The position numbers and the translations under genes are program-made. From assembly GCA_016839805.1 (NCBI GenBank), contig JAEOTO010000017.1:1-27192 (forward strand): a stretch of DNA of 27,192 nt. Reading direction: 5' to 3'. The notes beneath the pieces are model-generated. The model was not told the origin of the DNA. It made no database searches and saw only the letters and a program-made list of their open reading frames with translations. Below, piece after piece: positions 488 to 10,010 of the stretch (position 1 is the stretch's first letter; each line of letters opens with the position of its first letter). This stretch comes from Candidatus Hermodarchaeota archaeon (GTDB lineage Archaea; Asgardarchaeota; Hermodarchaeia; Hermodarchaeales; Hermodarchaeaceae).

Positions 488-613
488 CTACCTGCGCCAC
501 GTCTTCACGCGATCTCGTTCTTCCCGACTCTTCGCCTGGAACTAGATCCGCAGTGGTTTCTCACACCTCCCATCGAAATACGCCAAAATCATCCGATTCG
601 TTTACTTGAAACA
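488..613 (-). pseudogene. Displaced hydrogenase 3'-end copy A
   Basis: Translates CFK*TNRMILAYFDGRCEKPLRI*FQAKSREERDRVKTWRR*, colinear over 42 codons with 5471-5596 (CFSCTDRIILSYPDGKKEEKPWAWFQQKSREERDRVKAWRR*). Two internal stops. Confidence 0.9.
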
Positions 614-655
614 TCTAGAAGTACAGAGAGTAACACCCAATTCCAGTAATTATTT

Positions 656-925
656 ATGCTCCGATTACTCTCTTCTAGCTTGGAGGCGAAAGGCATCAAA
701 AACCGCGTCCAAAACCATAATAGAAAAGAGCAATATCGCCGCTGGAAGGCATACATCGAAGCAATGCGTGGACCCCTCAGCAGCATACCAGCTGATCACC
801 AACAAATTGATGCAATGATTGTGAGAAAACGTGCTGAAGCACGATTCTTTGAGGGGCGCAATCAACATTCTGTGAATCGGTCCGCATTTCATCTGACTAA
901 AATGCTTAAACGCCAAACCGGCTAA
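656..925 (+). CDS. Small hypothetical protein or gene remnant (cargo between copies A and B)
   Basis: 89-aa ATG ORF filling most of the interval between two tail copies; no recognisable motif. Confidence 0.3.
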   Translation: MLRLLSSSLEAKGIKNRVQNHNRKEQYRRWKAYIEAMRGPLSSIPADHQQIDAMIVRKRAEARFFEGRNQHSVNRSAFHLTKMLKRQTG

Positions 926-1003
926 TCCCCAAAACCCCGCCTATTCAAGACGCTGTTAAGGTTGAAAGCCCTTTTAAGCTATCTTCTTAAATATGGAGAC
1001 AAC

Positions 1004-1135
1004 TTGGAGTCGTCACGTGCTTGCCTGCCCACATGCTTCTCGACTCCTTGCTCAAAGCACGCCCACGGCTTTACTTCTTTCTTCCCATCCGGGTATGCCA
1101 AAATGATCCGATCCGTACATGAAAAACACGGTATC
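1004..1135 (-). pseudogene. Displaced hydrogenase 3'-end copy B
   Basis: PCFSCTDRIILAYPDGKKEVKPWA matches the resident gene at 22/24 aa (58/72 nt), then CFEQ-(1-nt deletion)-SREACGQAST*RL. Confidence 0.92.
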
Positions 1136-1211
1136 TGAGTTCCCATTCAAATCTAAAAACTCTATTATTACATGAAAGGGTGACTGGATTGTAAATGACG
1201 GGATTGTCAGA

Positions 1212-1922
1212 TTATTGGATCATATGCCCCCAATTTGCAGTCGTCACGTGAAGCACATGGTGGGTCGCGTTCAAGACGACATATTGGTAAATTCTACTAC
1301 CTACCAAATCACCATATTTGAGCATCATATGGACCATGAACGCATCTCCATAGGTTTCAGTATACGGAGGATATCTCGAAATCTCGTACCCTGTTGTAAT
1401 CCATCGTGCCGATCGCATTGCATCTGAATTGACCTTCCAGGGAAAGGAAATCGTCATCGACTGGTTTGAAGCCACAATCGCACTACCAAAATTTACCTGA
1501 ACCGTGAGGTTGGAAATCCAATACGCCGACGCATTATACTCGTATTCCGCAGAAATCCATGGCTTCGTTTTGGTGATGTTTTCCAATCGCGAGACCAAGT
1601 ATTCGAGGGTCTCATTGTTGATAAAATTAAGCCAGGTTTCAAATCTACTGGGTGTCATAACATCACCATGCGACCAATAGGGTGTCCACTCCAAAATCTC
1701 GCTATAATTCGCTATCTCCGCGCTATGCATCGCATCCCGGGCAGGCCCCGCTGTTGGAGACCGATGAAACACCATCGAATGTGTGGGAAGTGGTTGTCCA
1801 AAATACCAGAAATATGACCCCACCATGAGGGCAATAAAAAAAACTAAAGGCACGGCAATAAGAACTCGCCTATCGAAACGACGCGATTTCACCTTTGATG
1901 TCATCATCACACAGCATAACAT
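1212..1922 (-). CDS. Hypothetical membrane-anchored protein (single N-terminal TM; start probably ATG ~1907)
   Basis: 236-aa ORF with a basic stretch (KSRRFDRR), a hydrophobic segment (VLIAVPLVFFIALMVGSYFWYF) and a soluble domain with several N-x-S/T sequons. Confidence 0.7.
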   Translation of the reverse strand: MLCCVMMTSKVKSRRFDRRVLIAVPLVFFIALMVGSYFWYFGQPLPTHSMVFHRSPTAGPARDAMHSAEIANYSEILEWTPYWSHGDVMTPSRFETWLNFINNETLEYLVSRLENITKTKPWISAEYEYNASAYWISNLTVQVNFGSAIVASNQSMTISFPWKVNSDAMRSARWITTGYEISRYPPYTETYGDAFMVHMMLKYGDLVGSRIYQYVVLNATHHVLHVTTANWGHMIQ

Positions 1923-2099
1923 AGCGCATTATAAGAATGATAGTTTTGCGGAAACAAGTCACTTTTATAACAAAAAAAGGATACTACACTCCAAACTGCC
2001 TGAAAACCGTTCAAGTTTCAACTTAGTTCAGATTTACCATTTAACCAAGATAAGAATCATTAAAAACCAACCCTGATGTAAAGCTACACAAGGGAATCA

Positions 2100-2456
2100 A
2101 TGATGCATTATCAGGTAGGCGGTTGGATGCTTCTCTGCTCGATGATCCAACCGCCACCATTCATTGACGACTTTGAATTGACCGCTTTGATGTATAACTT
2201 CCTACTTGGATTCTCCATTATTCTCGTCATCGCCCTCACCATCATTGTGGGGTGGCTTCTCAAACGAATATATCCTTCACCGAAACTCACTGGTCGAGAT
2301 TACGCCGCACTAACCGCGTTTATCGGCATTGTATTTTTCGCGTGTGCCCCCTACTGCACACCCCTTGCCAGCCATTCCCCCCTCGTTGCATATCTTGCCG
2401 CAGTCTTTGGATGCTGGTACCTCGCATGCCGATCTCCATGGTGGAAAAAACGCTAA
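2100..2456 (+). CDS. Small hypothetical membrane protein (about 3 TM)
   Basis: 118-aa ORF with three hydrophobic segments and a basic C-terminus (WWKKR). Exact start uncertain. Confidence 0.65.
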   Translation: MMHYQVGGWMLLCSMIQPPPFIDDFELTALMYNFLLGFSIILVIALTIIVGWLLKRIYPSPKLTGRDYAALTAFIGIVFFACAPYCTPLASHSPLVAYLAAVFGCWYLACRSPWWKKR

Positions 2457-2518
2457 ACCGACAAGAATTCACTTCAATCGGAAGACCAAGAGTAATCTAA
2501 TGCACAGCATACGATCGA

Positions 2519-2634
2519 TTACCCACGCCACATTTTTCAGCTTCACAGGCTTCCCGACTTTGCTTCTCAAACCAAGCCCACGGCTTCTCCTCTTTCGAGT
2601 CATCAGGATAAGCCAGGATAATCCGATCCACACA
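2519..2634 (-). pseudogene. Displaced hydrogenase 3'-end copy C
   Basis: CVDRIILAYPDDSKEEKPWAWFEKQSREACE-(1-nt deletion)-KMWRG* aligns with the resident CTDRIILSYPDGKKEEKPWAWFQQKSREERDRVKAWRR*. Confidence 0.9.
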
Positions 2635-2728
2635 ATTTCTGGTCAAATCCTCTTCAACTTAACAGCTTCATTTATTATGCTAACTGGAGATCAAAGAAAC
2701 TCTAAGAGAATTCTTCGAGAGAAAAGAA

Positions 2729-3154
2729 CTACTCATCCTCTTTAAAATCGAGTGAGACTGAATTAATACAGTAGCGTAACCCCGTCTTATCTCTCGGTCC
2801 ATCATCAAACACATGACCAAGATGCCCACCACAGTTCTTACACAGAACTTCTATTCGTCGCATAGCATGAGAGAGATCGAGTTTCTCTTCAATTTTGTCT
2901 TTATCTAGGGCATCATAAAAACTCGGCCAACCACAACCAGAATCGAATTTTGCATCAGATGAAAAGAGTTCCACACCACAACCCGCACACTTGTAGGTAC
3001 CCTTTTCTTTATGATTCCAATACTTACCAGTGAACGGACGTTCTGTCCCCTTCTCTCGCAACACAACATACTCTCGTTTAGAGAGTTTCTTCTTCCATTC
3101 GTCTTCGGTTAATTCTCCTGCAATCTTCATATCAATCACTTCGTTTATTGCCAC
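2729..3154 (-). CDS. msrB: Peptide-methionine (R)-S-oxide reductase MsrB, Zn-binding
   Basis: GTERPF, CAGC and CKNC zinc pairs, KFDSGCGWPSF, HLGHVFDDGP, RYCINS motifs. Confidence 0.97.
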   Translation of the reverse strand: MAINEVIDMKIAGELTEDEWKKKLSKREYVVLREKGTERPFTGKYWNHKEKGTYKCAGCGVELFSSDAKFDSGCGWPSFYDALDKDKIEEKLDLSHAMRRIEVLCKNCGGHLGHVFDDGPRDKTGLRYCINSVSLDFKEDE

Positions 3155-3246
3155 AAATCACTAATTGCTTTTCGCAAATACTAGCACTAATAGCAATTGC
3201 TTAATGATTTGGAAACGTTACACTCATTCTGAAGATCAAGAGAAAA

Positions 3247-3309
3247 TTATCAGCACCACACTTTTGCTCTTTCACGCTCTCCACGGCTCTTCTGCTGGAA
3301 CCACGCCCC
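3247..3309 (-). pseudogene. Displaced hydrogenase 3'-end copy D (short)
   Basis: AWFQQKSRGERERAKVWC** versus resident AWFQQKSREERDRVKAWRR*. cggctcttctgctggaacca is 19/20 identical to the resident gene. Terminal TGG TGC TGA TAA is explicable as W-R-R-stop with two C>T changes. Confidence 0.85.
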
Positions 3310-3343
3310 CAAACGCACCTCACGCCTTACACACCGTAATCCA

Positions 3344-3380
3344 TTTAAAGAAACCAAAAACCGGACGCCATGGTGAGGTG
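3344..3380 (+). promoter_or_regulatory. Putative TATA box and Shine-Dalgarno for the 692-aa ORF
   Basis: TTTAAA at 3344-3349 and GGTGAGGTG at 3372-3380, 11 nt before ATG 3392. Confidence 0.45.
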
Positions 3381-3391
3381 TCCCCCACAAT

Positions 3392-5470
3392 ATGGTCCCC
3401 ACCACCCCATCTGAGGAGTATAAAACTGCTACTACGAACCCTCCTACTGAAAATCACATGCCCTCCACCACAGCCACTCTGTTATCGACCCAATTTCTCC
3501 TGAAGACAGGCAAACCCATTAAAAAATGGACCCGCCTCCGCCACGATCTCGCCACCACGCCTGAAGCCGAACACCTTCTCGATAACTACGGTCACACCGC
3601 CTGGCAAACCCTCGAACACAACCTCCACCGACACCCCTACCTCCAAACCCGCACCACCTTCGACCACGCCTACATCAACACCCTCTGGCACCGCACCCTC
3701 ACCGCCGCCCGCCACGACAGACACCTCACAAACAAAACCTACAAAGAACTCGAAACCATCACCGGCATCCCTGCCGGACGCATCCGCGACTGGCATCTTG
3801 GCGAAAAAGAACCCCACCTCGAACGCACCCTCCGCATCCACGAAAATGCACGCCAACAATGGGAGAACGAACTTCAAAACGAAGCCAAAGACCACATCCT
3901 CGACCCCAGCCTCGTCTACACCACCTTCAAACCCCTCCTCGACCACCCCGACCACCAAACCCCCCAAGCCCTCACCACCGCCATCGAAACCCTCTACCAC
4001 CACGGCGACACCACCCGACTCACCATCGTCGAACTCAAACCCTACCACAAAACCGGACCCCAACCCCTCCGCACCATCGCCCACACCATCACCAAACACC
4101 AACCCCAGATTACCAACCTCCTCAACCAACACCTCAACCTCGCTGAAACGCAAGAGGAGCTCTGCTTCGCTATTGACCACGACATCCTCTACATTTGGCG
4201 CAAAACCACACACCCCGACCACTGGCTCAACACCTACAAAGACGAACTCCTCTACCTCAAACCCAAAATCAAAGAAGACCTCATCACCACCGCCCAACGC
4301 CACCTCAACGTCAACACCCAACAACTCGGACAACTCCTCACACAACTCACCGACCACAAAGGCCACCGCACCTACAACCCCCGCGCCACCCCCTACGAAC
4401 TCACCCACTCCAGCCCCAGCCTCCACGGCAACACCCTCCACCTCCTCCTCGACGCCACCAACCAATCCTTTGATGCAATTAAAACCCATATCATCCAAAT
4501 CGGACGCATCGTCAACCACGAAAAAGGCGGCGGCATCCAAAACCCTCAATTCCCTATAGGCGAAAAACTCGACGAAATCCGTGCACAGCTTATAGCCATC
4601 GCCCTCAGCGACTGCCATATCAACAAAAACACCCACGTCCTCACCTACCATGAAAAAGACAAAGATCGAATTGAATACGTACGAACACTCTTCCGAAAAC
4701 TTGGTGAAACTGACTACAAAACTGAAGAACTTAAAGGAAAACGCAAGCGCCTCACCATCACAGCCGTAGTAGGTCGGCTCCTTGAAAACTGGGGCGTCCC
4801 CAAAGGCGACAAACACCTTCACCCCAACTTCCGGTTACCGCAGAGTATACGCGACGGAACAAATGCCACTAAATGCGCCTACCTTCAAGAAATAATCCCT
4901 GAAGAGGGTTACTTTGTCAAACGCGCACATCATCAATTCGGAATAAAGAGAGCTCAAATTCTTACATCTGGCGACAAAGGAGAAAATCATGGATTTTTAC
5001 AAAAAGTTACTCCAGATGAAAAGGCGTTTATTCAAAAATATGGGCGAGAACAAATCTTTCAAATTAGAGATGATAAACCTCGACGGGTATTCATACTAGT
5101 CTGGGGGAAATTAAAGCATTTGGCAAAAAGAACAAAAGACAACCATGAAGTACAAATCGCCCAACACCTAGTAAAAACGATTCAAGAAAATAAATGCAAA
5201 TTACTGGAGGATGAAATTCAATTAGCATCCAGTTTAGGAATCAGCATGTATAAACTAATTAAGCAAATTCAATTTTATGAAAGTGGACGAGTATCTACCA
5301 TTTGGGAAGCCTACACCCGAACAAAAAAAGACACCTACAAATGGTCACAACTCGCTTTGCCTTCAACAGGAATTAAACGAAAAGCCGTTGAAAAATGGAT
5401 TGCCCAATATCAATTAGAATCTCCTAAACATAAAAAGAACAAAAAACGTGAATTCTCCAAACTTCTGTGA
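3392..5470 (+). CDS. Free-standing HTH + double LAGLIDADG (DOD)-like homing endonuclease domain protein
   Basis: HTH-like TYKELETITGIPAGRIRDW. LAGLIDADG-like helices QLIAIALSDCHI (~4586-4620) and KCAYLQEIIPEEGYF (~4871-4915), with the intervening LLENWGVPKGDK and RLPQSI and a block-H-like LLEDEIQLASSLGI. No intein splicing motifs seen. Confidence 0.7.
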   Translation: MVPTTPSEEYKTATTNPPTENHMPSTTATLLSTQFLLKTGKPIKKWTRLRHDLATTPEAEHLLDNYGHTAWQTLEHNLHRHPYLQTRTTFDHAYINTLWHRTLTAARHDRHLTNKTYKELETITGIPAGRIRDWHLGEKEPHLERTLRIHENARQQWENELQNEAKDHILDPSLVYTTFKPLLDHPDHQTPQALTTAIETLYHHGDTTRLTIVELKPYHKTGPQPLRTIAHTITKHQPQITNLLNQHLNLAETQEELCFAIDHDILYIWRKTTHPDHWLNTYKDELLYLKPKIKEDLITTAQRHLNVNTQQLGQLLTQLTDHKGHRTYNPRATPYELTHSSPSLHGNTLHLLLDATNQSFDAIKTHIIQIGRIVNHEKGGGIQNPQFPIGEKLDEIRAQLIAIALSDCHINKNTHVLTYHEKDKDRIEYVRTLFRKLGETDYKTEELKGKRKRLTITAVVGRLLENWGVPKGDKHLHPNFRLPQSIRDGTNATKCAYLQEIIPEEGYFVKRAHHQFGIKRAQILTSGDKGENHGFLQKVTPDEKAFIQKYGREQIFQIRDDKPRRVFILVWGKLKHLAKRTKDNHEVQIAQHLVKTIQENKCKLLEDEIQLASSLGISMYKLIKQIQFYESGRVSTIWEAYTRTKKDTYKWSQLALPSTGIKRKAVEKWIAQYQLESPKHKKNKKREFSKLL

Positions 5471-6676
5471 CTAACGGCGCCAAGCTTTAACTCGATCTCG
5501 TTCTTCCCGGCTCTTTTGCTGGAACCAGGCCCATGGCTTCTCCTCTTTCTTCCCATCAGGGTAGGAAAGAATGATGCGATCGGTGCATGAAAAACAAGGA
5601 TCAATCGAAGCTAACGCGATGGGGACGTCGGCGATTTTGCCGCCTTTGAGGATTTCGATGACGCCTGGGATGTTGCCGAGGGTGGGGGCGCGGGCTTTGT
5701 GGCGTTCGGGCTTATCTGTTCCATTGGAGACGACGTAGTGGACGACTTCGCCGCGTGGGGCTTCGAAGGTGCTGAGGGCTTTGCCGGGTGGGACGCGGCG
5801 GGGGGCGCGGATGCTGATGTCGCCTGGGGGGAGGTTGTTGAGCCAGTGGATGCAGCAATTGGTGGCATCGATGGTTTCGAGGATGCGGACGACGACGCGA
5901 CCGGCGACGTCGCAGAGGTCGGAGGTTCGGGTTTCCCAGTGTTTGCCTTCGCTTTCCTTGTAGGGGGTGCGTGGTTGGGTGTTGCGGACATCCCAGTGAA
6001 TATCAGATGCTCGGGCTGTGGGACCGGTGGTACAGAGAGCTTTCCCGATCTCTGTTTCGAGAATGCCGACGCCTAAGGCGCGATCAAGAATGGTTTGTTC
6101 CTTTAAAATCAGGTTCAGGTAATGTTGCATCCGGTCACGGATTTTTTCCATCCGTTCAACCATGGATGGTACTTGGGGTTTGGTGACATCGTGGCGGACG
6201 CCACCAATGATGTTGTTGGCGTAATTGACCCGATTTCCACAGATCTCTTCGATGACATCCATGGCGTACTCGCGGTCCCGCCATGTATAATGGAAGAGCG
6301 TATCCCAGCCTATCTCATGACCAGCAACGCCTAGCCAGAGAATGTGGCTGTGAATTCGGTTTAACTCATTCATGATGCCCCGAATGTACAAACCACGTGG
6401 CGGCACATCCAAATCGAGAATCTCTTCTACAGCCTGGACATAACACGTCGTGTGGGATTGTGAGCAGATGCCACAGATGCGTTCCGCTAAGTAGACGTTT
6501 TGGCTATAACTTCGGCTTTCAAATGCTTTTTCAATTCCGCGATGGACGTATCCAATTCGGGCATCGACATCGACGACGATTTCTCCGTCAACGGTTATAG
6601 TGAAATTTTCGGGTTCTTTAAGAGCGGGGTGTTGGGGCCCGATGGGGATGGTCATGGTCATGGGTTGTTTTGCCAT
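5471..6676 (-). CDS. Group 4 [NiFe]-hydrogenase large subunit (Mbh/Ech-like, NuoD superfamily)
   Basis: GPQHP, GYVHRGIEK, L1 motif ERICGICSQSH, EAPRGE, RAPT, L2 motif DPCFSCTDR followed by a C-terminal extension. Confidence 0.95.
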   Translation of the reverse strand: MAKQPMTMTIPIGPQHPALKEPENFTITVDGEIVVDVDARIGYVHRGIEKAFESRSYSQNVYLAERICGICSQSHTTCYVQAVEEILDLDVPPRGLYIRGIMNELNRIHSHILWLGVAGHEIGWDTLFHYTWRDREYAMDVIEEICGNRVNYANNIIGGVRHDVTKPQVPSMVERMEKIRDRMQHYLNLILKEQTILDRALGVGILETEIGKALCTTGPTARASDIHWDVRNTQPRTPYKESEGKHWETRTSDLCDVAGRVVVRILETIDATNCCIHWLNNLPPGDISIRAPRRVPPGKALSTFEAPRGEVVHYVVSNGTDKPERHKARAPTLGNIPGVIEILKGGKIADVPIALASIDPCFSCTDRIILSYPDGKKEEKPWAWFQQKSREERDRVKAWRR

Positions 6677-6710: not shown

Positions 6711-6761
6711 AGGTTCATGCCTATTCTTCCTTAAGAAATTAACCGTCAAACTACGATATAC

Positions 6762-6799
6762 CTATCAGGTCGATCCATTTTCTGTCAGGTCGATGCATT
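6762..6799. repeat. Two-copy direct repeat with 20-bp period in the divergent promoter region
   Basis: ctatcaggtcgatccatt / ctgtcaggtcgatgcatt, 16/18 identical. Confidence 0.75.
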
Positions 6800-6908: not shown

Positions 6909-8288
6909 TTGGAGGGACGATTTTTGGAGGAAAGAAAATTGCAATTTGGCAATAGAAGAAGAACGATACTGGCTGCGATCTCAATCTGCATCATGGCAAG
7001 TCTGCTACTCGCTGGTACGGCGGTCATGGCTCGGCCTCATCATGGCGTGTTCATTGTAGCACCCTCAGGTGATGTGTCAGGAGTCACGGATACGACCAAC
7101 ATACAGCAGGCACTTGACAACGCCATTGCGGCAGGAGGAGGAAGCACAGTGTTACTTGAGGAAGGTAACTTCTACCTCTGTGAAACCATAGTGGGAGTCA
7201 ACTTCGACGGAACATTCAAGGGTGCTGGAGCTGGACTGACGGTTCTGCACAGTGTGGAGAACTTCCCTGCTCAAGACACGGGCAACCTTGGCGTAGCAAA
7301 TCCGAGAATGCTGATGTTCTACCAGGATGAGTACTCGACTAGCACTCGTAGACATCCCTACAAGATACTGCTGCGTGACTTCTCCTTGAAAGTGGACCAA
7401 CCAACTGAGGAGTGGTATTTTGGTTACTTCAGGGCCATGAACGTGCTTGACCTCTATGGCAAGATCGATGGTCAATGGACTGAGGATGTGTCCTACTTCG
7501 ATGCCACCGTGAAGAATGTGGAGTTCTTGGGTGATGCTGGTGACGAATATGGCTACTTCGGCCTTAGCATTCAGAATGCTCTACTCATTCAAGGTGAGTG
7601 GGGCGCGGACTTTGCGAATGAGAGAATCAGCGGAAGGTATGTCGTTGAAGGTTGTCACTTCCAATACAGCGTCGGTTCAAGCGTCATGTTTGGATCATTC
7701 GGAGATTCACACATTCGAATAGTCCGAAACACCTACCAGGACACTCTGATCGGTCCAGAGCTCTATGACCTCGACAACTCACGTGCCGAGGTGGCATTCA
7801 ACGAGGTTGCCGGAGTTGGCTGGTACGGCACGTATGTGTGCAATGGCCTCTACGCGACCAGTCTTGAACCAAGTCGGGTTCTCATCCATCACAACCACAT
7901 TGAGTGTGCACCAGGTGCAAATGGCATCTGGCTTGACGACTCCCTTGCCGTACCGGGAGAGGTAGAGGGAGTCTCAGTCTTTGCGCATCACAACGAGATT
8001 GTCCTGAATGATCCATATAGTTGGGGTGTCTTCGGTTATGGTGCTCAGAAAGTGTGGCTAGTCCACAACACCATCCGTGGAAGTGGAGAAGCGGGAATCG
8101 TGACAGGAATCTGGGGTGATGCGGTAGAAGGGTGGAAGCTGGTCCTGAATGACCTTTCCGACTTCGACGCAGAGGTAGCAGACATCTGGTTGGGTCAGGG
8201 AACATCGCATTGTTGGCTAATCCATCGCGGACCCAGTGATTCAGTCCTCGACGAGGGCACTGACAACTGGCTGCTCCTCCTCCCGTAG
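6909..8288 (+). CDS. Secreted right-handed parallel beta-helix (pectin-lyase-like) repeat protein
   Basis: Signal-peptide-like RRRTILAAISICIMASLLLAG; DTTNIQQALDNA...TVLLEEGNFY cap; repeated (I/V)xxNxI motifs (IVRNTY, VAFNEV, IHHNHI, AHHNEI, LVHNTI). Start uncertain. Confidence 0.8.
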   Translation: MEGRFLEERKLQFGNRRRTILAAISICIMASLLLAGTAVMARPHHGVFIVAPSGDVSGVTDTTNIQQALDNAIAAGGGSTVLLEEGNFYLCETIVGVNFDGTFKGAGAGLTVLHSVENFPAQDTGNLGVANPRMLMFYQDEYSTSTRRHPYKILLRDFSLKVDQPTEEWYFGYFRAMNVLDLYGKIDGQWTEDVSYFDATVKNVEFLGDAGDEYGYFGLSIQNALLIQGEWGADFANERISGRYVVEGCHFQYSVGSSVMFGSFGDSHIRIVRNTYQDTLIGPELYDLDNSRAEVAFNEVAGVGWYGTYVCNGLYATSLEPSRVLIHHNHIECAPGANGIWLDDSLAVPGEVEGVSVFAHHNEIVLNDPYSWGVFGYGAQKVWLVHNTIRGSGEAGIVTGIWGDAVEGWKLVLNDLSDFDAEVADIWLGQGTSHCWLIHRGPSDSVLDEGTDNWLLLLP

Positions 8289-8534
8289 ATCGAGCGAGTC
8301 GTACGAGATTGGACAACATAAACGGTCGGGGTCGAACCCTTTCTAAGGTGGGATGTCCCGACCAAACCTCTCTTTTTCCTCTTCCACAACTAGAAAAACT
8401 TCTAGCCGATACGCTCAGGCTAGAATACACCTTCCTTCCCACAACCCCTTTCCTATTGGAGATTCTAGGTTTAACTTGAGAATCCCTTAAGAGATTTTGG
8501 TTTTGCCAACCTTTAACGGGGTTAACTCGTGGTT

Positions 8535-10010
8535 CTATTTGTGCTGTTTTGCCAGCCTTTTGACTTCAGTAATGTCAAGCTTTAATCCTTTTGCGACGCG
8601 GGTCCCATATTCTGGGTGAACTCTATAGAAGATAGCGGTTTGACGGAGTTGAATCTCTTTTTTGGCGTTTCCGAGGTGATCGACGATATTGCCGATGAGA
8701 TGATCTCGGTCACTGTCAGTCATTACCTTTTCGTAGAGGGCACGAGGCTGGATGAAGTCATCGTTGGGGTGACTATACGCGTGGCGACCAACTTTTCCGG
8801 TCACTTCGAATTGTGGTTCTGCTGTGGTTGGATCGGGTTCAGGTCCGCCCATACTGTTTGGCCAGTAGTTGGGATGACCACTAGTTTCTTCCCGTCGCAT
8901 GAATCCGTCACGTTGGTAGTTGTGAACTGGACCTTTGGGTGCGTTGATGGGGAGTTGTTCATAGTTAGCTCCTAGACGATATCGGTGAGCGTCATGGTAG
9001 GAGAATATGCGTCCTTGCAGCATCTTGTCAGGTGATGCAGCGATACCAGGTACGAAGTTACCGGGGCAGAATGCTGATTGCTCCACATCCGCGAAATAAT
9101 TGGTGGGGTTGCGGTTGAGGACCATCCGTCCTAGGGGTTTGACAGGGTAGTCACCGTGTGGCCAGACTTTGGTGATGTCAAAGATGTTGAAGCGGTATTT
9201 TTCGGCATCTTCCGGAGGCATTATTTGTACTTCGACATTCCAGGCGGGGTAGTCACCCCGTTCGATAGCATCGTATAGGTCGCGAGTCGCGTGGTCAGGG
9301 TCCTTGCCTTTCATGATTTCGGCTTCTTGTCTTGTGAAGTTTTGAATGCGTTGGGCGGTTTTGAAGTGGTATTTGACCCACCAGTATTCGCCTTGGTCGT
9401 TGTACCATTTGTAGGTGTGTCCGCTGTAGCCGTTCATGTGCCGATGCGTTTTGGGTGTGCCTCTATCGGAAAAGAGGATGGTGACTTGGTGGATGGATTC
9501 GGGGGTGAGGGAAAGGAAATCCCAGAACATATCTGGGTCTTTGGTGTTTGTGGCGGGATTGCGTTTCTGAGTATGGATGAAATCGGGGAATTTCATAGGG
9601 TCACGAATGAAGAAGACGGGTGTGTTGTTCATCACCAGGTCATAGTTGCCTTCTTCTGTGTAGATCTTTACGGCAAAGCCGCGAGGATCTCTTTCAGCAT
9701 CGGCTGATCCCTTCTCGCCCCCGACAGTTGAGAATCGAACAAAAAGATCGGTTTTCTTGCCAACCTTTGACAGGAATTTTGCTTTTGTGTATTTCGAGAG
9801 GTCATGGGTGACTTCAAGGTACCCAAAAGCTCCCGCACCTTTAGCATGGACGACTCTTTCAGGGATTCGTTCGCGGTTGAAATGGGCAAGTTTATGGACA
9901 AGGTGGACATCCTGTAGAAGAACTGGACCAGGATCACCGGCCGTTACACTATTTTGGTCATCATCCACGGGAGAGCCAAAACTGGTTGTATACCTTTTTT
10001 TCTTCGCCAA
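8535..10010 (-). CDS. katA: Monofunctional heme catalase, small-subunit type
   Basis: [42 protein letters not shown] heme-ligand motif; TTG start preceded by GGAG. Confidence 0.97.

Follow-up and report, generated by a model that had tools for sequence, protein, structure and literature searches.

A hydrogenase locus of a Hermodarchaeia archaeon as the probable target of a LAGLIDADG homing element that replaces gene 3' ends

Homing elements that spread by exchanging the 3' end of a conserved gene are known, in the literature that we found, only from yeast chromosomes and fungal mitochondria. WHO elements, which a description from yeasts in 2026 set apart as a third, rare kind of homing element, exchange the 3' half of FBA1, push the older ends outward and leave conflicting trees for the gene's two halves (PMC7282813; 10.64898/2026.08.13.744650), and mitochondrial mORFs give a foreign C-terminus to atp6 of Allomyces macrogynus and to atp6, atp9, cox2 and nad3 of Glomus (PMC3630166). 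Here we analyse contig JAEOTO010000017.1 of Candidatus Hermodarchaeota archaeon (27,192 nucleotides (nt); "the window"), which is the whole of contig C3 of a 2.3-Mb, 87%-complete Asgard genome (G000 below), probably of marine-sediment origin. In it, the gene for a [NiFe]-hydrogenase large subunit is followed by an open reading frame (ORF) for a LAGLIDADG nuclease and by four decayed copies of its own 3' end, set among unrelated cargo genes. We think it probable that a free-standing LAGLIDADG homing element, acting through 3'-end replacement, has this locus as its target, and that relic tails of the hydrogenase gene build and shuffle the cargo array. The nuclease gene lies directly downstream of its host gene, the tails derive from one site, and the 5' and 3' parts of the gene have conflicting histories. 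Our search returned no published archaeal case of this kind of homing, although it missed most subscription papers.

The likeness to the WHO elements of Torulaspora and Lachancea at FBA1 is extensive. In both, a free-standing LAGLIDADG gene with two motifs lies just downstream of a conserved gene that is intact, additional 3' fragments start at the cut site, the 5' and 3' trees of the host gene conflict, arrays vary among strains, the site overlaps metal-binding active-site codons, and the nuclease variants are divergent. There are also differences. The present element sits on an archaeal chromosome, its cleavage is predicted, and its nuclease has N-terminal domains resembling helix-turn-helix (HTH) folds and no C-terminal zinc finger; its target is a hydrogenase, with paralogues at six or more other genes, rather than FBA1; each array holds one intact nuclease gene, with unrelated passenger genes in the older slots, whereas WHO clusters hold several nucleases; and the exchanged tail is only 43 codons long and is accompanied by a mirror base skew. 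Membership in the WHO family itself was considered and rejected, as the protein ends right after the LAGLIDADG domain and lacks a Cys cluster, kinship with HO/VDE is not apparent, the best fold matches being archaeal intein and intron enzymes, and its target is another gene. The locus is thus like WHO elements and mORFs in its working, and is not a WHO member.

Fungal mitochondrial mORFs share the foreign 3' end, the nuclease ORF next to it, the native 3' end stranded behind and the use of several host genes. They are for the most part single insertions, some of them in frame or transcribed together with the host gene, whereas here, in a prokaryote, the opposite strand encodes the nuclease and as many as four or five tails alternate with cargo.

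In the "intronless homing" of the T4 seg and mob genes, a nuclease encoded outside its target cuts a conserved neighbour, immunity comes from sequence variation, and flanking sequence is co-converted; the free-standing homing endonucleases of phages are GIY-YIG or HNH enzymes. The hydrogenase locus resembles these in having a nuclease gene outside the conserved neighbouring target, and differs in that the seg and mob cases belong to phage genomes and have no stacks of displaced gene ends. What is new here is the archaeal chromosome, the convergent orientation, the single nuclease gene per array, the passengers in older slots, the use of tails as recombination joints and the mirror skew.

Displaced gene ends and the site from which they come

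The features that carry the argument are the following.

5471-6676, minus strand: intact gene for a group 4-type [NiFe]-hydrogenase large subunit (401 amino acids, aa), with Pfam matches Complex1_49kDa and NiFeSe_Hases and motifs RICGIC (L1) and DPCFSC (L2)
5471-5602, minus strand: live replacement tail, from the D-P-C-F-S-C codons to the stop, which probably travels with the nuclease, judging by its tree against those of the gene body and nuclease domain
5585-5605, minus strand: predicted cut and junction zone in the D-P-C-F-S-C codons, placed by the starts of the displaced tails
3392-5470, plus strand: free-standing homing-endonuclease gene (692 aa), tail-to-tail with the hydrogenase gene, recognised by fold model, alignment and the ratio of nonsynonymous to synonymous substitution rates (dN/dS)
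3248-3308 (weakly to 3338), minus strand: displaced tail D, which comprises the 3' half alone and lies immediately behind the nuclease gene, with a junction common to genome G003
2520-2634, minus strand: displaced tail C, which has lost 1 nt close to its end; in genome G013 its 5' half is fused to the 3' half of tail B
1009-1131, minus strand: displaced tail B, beginning in the Pro codon, with a 1-nt deletion
488-613, minus strand: displaced tail A, beginning at the first Cys codon, with internal stops; the same junction occurs in G013 and in metagenome locus L120

The host protein is NuoD-like, with both CxxC motifs and with NuoH- and NuoI-like partners, which places it in group 4. A first-pass annotation of this DNA, made from the sequence alone, had described four decayed hydrogenase 3' ends in the orientation of the gene, and both tblastn (E 1e-12 to 3e-4) and local alignment bear this out, the copies scoring 83-135 where 4,000 random windows of the genome gave at most 58.5. 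The tails comprise the last 20-43 codons, carry stops or 1-nt deletions and are 65-71% identical in nucleotides to the live tail; they are confined to the locus, since a tail profile finds no further copy elsewhere in the genome. The annotation had A, B and C all beginning within D-P-C-F-S-C; this holds for A and B, while C begins only at the last Cys codon or the next Thr codon, and D begins much later. Its count for tail B was reproduced exactly, with 11 of 14 mismatches over 72 nt falling in third positions (binomial p 7e-4) and 22 of 24 amino acids identical. Tail B was hence under coding constraint, as claimed, yet by itself this does not distinguish between a foreign donor and evolution of the live tail at a later time. 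Base by base, mismatches number 49 at C, 40 at A, 27 at T and 22 at G; a diversity-generating retroelement was rejected, as the mismatches are not adenine-specific and the 87%-complete genome yielded no RVT_1 match.

Since the genome is a bin from a short-read metagenome, and related strains were in the sample, hydrogenase ends of several strains might have been joined in one contig. We give such misassembly a negligible chance. The copies are only 65-71% identical and are decayed by stops and frameshifts; contigs of a second assembler, from the probable source run, follow the same path (1-2828 in one piece with A, B and C; 2810-4059 with D; 4034-5696) at an even depth of 13.3-13.5; and genomes of relatives carry the same array junctions. 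The second assembly comes from the same sample and is hence no independent confirmation.

The array continues beyond the window. Contig C4 overlaps the window start over 127 nt at 100% identity and carries three more cargo ORFs, followed by nuoH- and nuoI-like genes; neither a further displaced tail nor an integrase was found on C4 up to these genes. Because nuoH and nuoI directly follow the hydrogenase large subunit gene in a Bathyarchaeia outgroup, the array, about 8 kb long, has split an ancestral hydrogenase operon.

In this Hermodarchaeia family, 13 of 19 genomes carry displaced tails, each with as many as four or five, and copy number and cargo order vary, as the annotation had suggested one might find among relatives; none was confidently found in G002 and G006. 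Among 35 tails from the 13 genomes, 24 start within 18 nt of D-P-C-F-S-C, 18 of them within its first 10 nt, and the others further downstream, so that the starts trail off over 60 nt; one loose match alone starts upstream of the motif. Grouped by 5' flank, 41 tails fall into 28 classes, and the junctions therefore formed many times at one site, which supports the annotation's proposal of repeated 3'-end replacement at the D-P-C codons. Live ends in one genome also recur as displaced tails in another, each with the same cargo behind: the live end and msrB of G002 match tail D and msrB of the present genome (80% over 567 nt), and the live end and following module of G013 match the first displaced tail and module of L120 (86% over 761 nt). 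The msrB of G002 directly follows its hydrogenase gene, and we considered this arrangement as a naive, empty site; this was rejected, as G002 shows the C-rich tract, its tail is mosaic, and a deletion may have produced the arrangement. Hybrid tails occur as well. One in G013 is C-like before and B-like after its E-K-P-W codons, and L120 joins an A-like start to a D-like end, with msrB next.

The annotation went on to read the array as integron-like, with the newest unit nearest the gene. An integron or a set of tandem islands would likewise consist of ordered cassettes between short repeats, and integrative elements do restore their target genes; the modules are cassette-like and variable in order, and two unlinked tyrosine recombinase genes lie on other contigs of the genome, so that one of them might act in trans to insert circular cassettes at an att core in the D-P-C codons. 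We nevertheless regard this as very unlikely. No integrase lies between the host gene and nuoH in any mapped array; a linked IntI tyrosine recombinase is likewise missing from the window, where the annotation had seen no integrase, and no serine recombinase was found in the 87%-complete genome. There is no invariant core either, as all 13 site alleles differ; tail starts spread as they would after end resection; and the repeats are decaying coding tails with variable third positions, with no matching inverted repeats, no palindromic attC-like structure and no RNA family. Because a linked integrase and a fixed core are both lacking, the array is not an integron. Nor is an ordering by age supported beyond the first slot, since decay does not rise with rank from the hydrogenase (rho -0.12, p 0.65) and modules have been shuffled by recombination between tails.

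The nuclease, the tail that probably travels with it and a presumed scar of repair

We believe that the ORF of 692 codons, which the annotation had listed among the cargo as an HTH-LAGLIDADG protein, is instead the likely engine of the array in place of an integrase. The LAGLIDADG assignment holds up. The protein has no family in Pfam or NCBIfam, the Atlas points to LAGLIDADG, and an AlphaFold model (predicted local distance difference test score, pLDDT, 86) shows an N-terminal helical, HTH-like part at about residues 45-370 and a double-LAGLIDADG domain at about 390-680, with two LAGLIDADG helices that are each followed by a beta-sheet saddle. Residues 390-680 match PI-PfuI (Z 15.7, root-mean-square deviation 2.5 over 186 residues; Foldseek and VIA), and also I-Tsp061I (Z 15.2) and I-DmoI (Z 12.8), the best matches being archaeal intein and intron enzymes; for the N-terminal part, a sequence search of the PDB gave weak homeodomain-like matches only. 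Residue D407 is invariant and position 505 is D or E (E505 here), before an invariant Gly; these are taken as the catalytic positions by motif and secondary structure. The nuclease domain is under purifying selection (dN/dS 0.09-0.30), while its second LAGLIDADG half is only 35-47% identical between variants. The gene ends at 5470 and abuts the hydrogenase stop at 5471 on the opposite strand, and the host ORF is continuous, without intron or intein.

Among the 14 family genomes with an assembled gene end, the nuclease stands directly behind the live tail in eight (in one by its last codons only), and it is also found in the first slot of metagenome loci L094, L119 and L120. The first-slot copies form one clade with support 100 in a quick tree. 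No array has more than one intact copy, and remnants follow displaced tails in two genomes (L040:10280-10660 of G007 and L039:1386-1720 of G001), either cut down to about 250 nt by internal deletion or left with the last 216 nt. Relatives of the nuclease were not found in viral contigs, hence no vector can be named.

The trees of gene body and tail reject each other (approximately unbiased test, p 5e-150 and 1e-32). In L120, for example, the body is like that of the present genome and G013, the tail like those of G006 and G011, and the nuclease domain like that of G011. The tail data do not reject the nuclease-domain tree (p 0.13); they do reject the body tree (p 1e-4), and likewise the tree for the nuclease gene's 5' part. 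The nuclease gene of L119 is itself a mosaic, 88-91% like that of G006 in its 5' part and closest to that of the present genome in its nuclease domain. Together these patterns suggest that the mobile core consists of the tail and the nuclease domain, and that crossovers take place on one side in the gene body and on the other in the resident nuclease gene's 5' part; because crossovers would fall within that 5' part, one nuclease would be left while tails and cargo pile up. The annotation's view that tails were captured from divergent donors is thus upheld as regards exchange between divergent backgrounds, and not as regards the donors of A-D, which cannot be named, the best other live tail being only 2-6 points above the genome's own. 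All 13 site alleles differ in DNA and encode a nearly invariant protein, as would be expected if nuclease variants differ in specificity; third-position diversity at the site is no higher than in the 5' part of the hydrogenase gene.

A mirror-like base skew centres on the same site, with two tracts in the window.

5620-5990, minus strand: C/A-rich third-position tract in the hydrogenase gene just upstream of the site (left arm)
3295-4762, plus strand: strongest tract of C/A on the plus strand (right arm), which covers two thirds of the nuclease gene from its 5' end and is where variants recombine

In the upstream tract, C is the last base of 19-25 of 30 codons, a bias seen in each of the 13 family genes tested and absent from all 12 outgroup genes; the share of C at third positions upstream of the D codon is about 77% in every family member, outgroups being normal. 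Downstream of the site the same strand is G/T-rich for kilobases, most of all where the nuclease gene's 5' part lies, and in every array the skew changes sign at the D codon. The same mirror skew surrounds an intein-like insertion in MCM (G000:C22:60075-63794, 1,240 aa), where 39 of 40 third positions are C/A upstream and 1 of 40 downstream. The skew is probably a scar or by-product of repeated break repair in two homology arms. At the loci sampled in a second Asgard family it is absent. A 614-aa ORF downstream of rps19 (L122:7670-10190, G000:C9), which has no NCBIfam match, also lies between mirror C/A and G/T tracts.

The mechanism that we favour would run as follows. The nuclease would cut a sensitive allele within the D-P-C codons of the nickel-binding motif. 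Repair from a donor allele would then give the gene the donor's tail, as junctions and trees suggest, and the old tail, from the cut or slightly past it, would be pushed outward with whatever came after. A donor tract with passenger genes, ending in one of the donor's old tails or end-joined to the cut, could thereby create a new unit of tail and cargo; units have been added many times, with at least 28 distinct junctions. The mosaics show that new nuclease variants mostly overwrite the resident gene through crossing over in its 5' part, and that displaced nuclease genes are deleted, leaving a single intact copy in the first slot. Old tails, finally, act as direct-repeat recombination joints, as the hybrids show, through which cargo is deleted, added and reordered.

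Several observations weigh against this homing model. The tail tree, which from 132 nt is poorly resolved, is rejected by the nuclease data; no sequence rule sorts nuclease-bearing from nuclease-free alleles among the 13; the cut site has been placed from tail junctions alone; and motif 1 in this clade has Cys in place of the usual Gly after Asp. Six of the 14 genomes have no nuclease behind the gene, and four of these still have tails, which nuclease loss may explain. Unlike in WHO clusters, most older units hold no nuclease remnant, and we can only infer the route of cargo entry for this reason. At the paralogous loci described below, no displaced end is detectable for etfA in this genome, for fae or for one MTHFR gene, and in the second Asgard family most of 20 sampled loci lack one.

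Some of these points would fit better if the nuclease were only cargo, foreign DNA having entered by homologous recombination in the hydrogenase gene and illegitimate joining, with D-P-C a breakage hotspot of other cause. The scarcity of remnants in older units, the ability of tails to recombine without a nuclease and the persistence of arrays in the nuclease-free genomes G008, G013 and G017 would all follow. We consider this unlikely, as it leaves unexplained the hard 5' boundary of the tails at one motif, the fixed first slot, the single clade and the history shared with the tail, and also the same layout of paralogues at six other genes. Domestication is a further alternative, wherein the host would keep the nuclease for programmed gene capture, tail diversification or WhiA-like regulation, and the array would be adaptive. 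WhiA is among the fold matches, the protein has extra HTH-like domains, and arrays with stress genes such as msrB have persisted across two genera. Patchy presence, truncation, internal deletion and the fast divergence of the second LAGLIDADG half, together with the conserved acidic residues, fit a selfish nuclease, however, and the tails decay by stops and frameshifts; we find a domesticated system quite improbable.

Cargo, paralogues and consequences of the homing model

The cargo of the window, in order from the nuclease, is as follows.

2729-3130, minus strand: msrB, methionine sulfoxide reductase B (Pfam SelR, E 1e-54), present in most arrays at varying rank
2100-2456, plus strand: putative 118-aa ORF with two hydrophobic segments by hydropathy; a weak MFS_1 match (E 4e-4) lies below the cut-off
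1212-1922, minus strand: 236-aa protein of no family, with one N-terminal hydrophobic segment and two distinct homologues (61% and 40%)
656-925, plus strand: 89-aa ORF module without Pfam match, common to G013, G008 and L120 at differing ranks
1-350, plus strand: 3' end of a cargo ORF of about 320 codons that starts on C4, where the array runs on with DUF362 and one more shared module

The SelR match agrees with the annotation's naming of msrB; the small cargo ORFs have no family in Pfam or NCBIfam. The msrB gene stands first in G002, second here and fifth in G011, two other modules have reversed order between G008 and G003, and the cassette from C to B of the present genome is missing from G013. 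Copies of array cargo from other genomes, 77-86% identical, lie at unrelated loci of the present genome (C50:104831-105356, C21:135756-136827 and C27:64373-65698); judged by these copies, the cargo may be drawn from a shared accessory pool.

Further features lie beside the array. Two 20-nt tandem copies, 81% alike, stand about 90 nt upstream of the hydrogenase start (6759-6799) and might be a regulator site. A beta-helix ORF and a catalase gene between the hydrogenase gene and lon (6909-10010) are absent from the close relative L120, and the upstream neighbours of the hydrogenase gene differ among genomes. At the contig end (27071-27192), three 36-nt tandem repeats code for an acidic repeat. 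Counts of promoter and terminator patterns, which were bacterial only, are at chance level; no tRNA genes were found at nine loci, and Rfam gave no match.

Paralogues of the nuclease lie tail-to-tail with mvhA, an FAD oxidase gene, etfA, MTHFR, acs and a cysteine desulfurase-like gene, and in each case the host gene's displaced 3' end lies behind. The present genome has a second such array (L085:9620-19140, C46), in which a 5'-truncated paralogue is tail-to-tail with an mvhA-type hydrogenase gene, and five displaced tails all start from C-L-S-C, in a register that matches the site of the window's hydrogenase. Among the genome's 2,006 long ORFs, just six have their own end repeated downstream, and the multi-copy cases among these six are the present gene, mvhA and actin, each with a convergent LAGLIDADG or LAGLIDADG-like ORF. 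In the actin case (L124:5300-10278 and L123:1-936, at the end of G000:C32 and the start of C9), the last codons have three displaced copies; the convergent 427-aa ORF has a weak LAGLIDADG likeness, belongs to another family than the 692-aa nuclease and is a weak lead. At uvrB of G004 (L056:5419-12068) it is the 5' end that is displaced, with a 117-codon uvrB start upstream of the nuclease gene and the full gene downstream.

The nuclease family is also present in 38 of 60 genomes of the second Asgard family, and 2 of its 20 sampled loci have the layout of target, nuclease and displaced tail, both at a cysteine desulfurase-like gene. In these, L135:5310-8883 and L140:3142-8664, the nuclease is tail-to-tail with that gene and a displaced 3' end is present. 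Elsewhere in the second family, copies follow ahcY or form part of fused ORFs 900-1,470 aa long. A broader proposal would be that 3'-end-replacement homing in Hermodarchaeia is a general, integrase-free system for collecting genes, in which a nuclease directed at metal-ligand codons of core genes would open the locus, with tails as reusable recombination sites and selection on the shuffled accessory genes, and hence a functional analogue of integrons; we hold this to be rather doubtful.

Regardless of that broader proposal, homing by 3'-end replacement at this locus would mean that a whole nuclease family acts in this way on Asgard chromosomes, at many core genes. It would account for an ancestral hydrogenase operon split by an 8-kb accessory island, and it would imply that two alleles of different species come together within a single cell often enough for gene ends to be exchanged; the swapping of gene ends would therefore be direct evidence of frequent DNA exchange in an uncultured lineage related to eukaryotes. 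A caution follows for phylogenies, in that the 3' ends of such marker genes carry foreign history. In this context, the variants would make up a natural set of nucleases with long sites and predicted targets, and the mirror skew would offer a sequence mark for locating repeated break repair.

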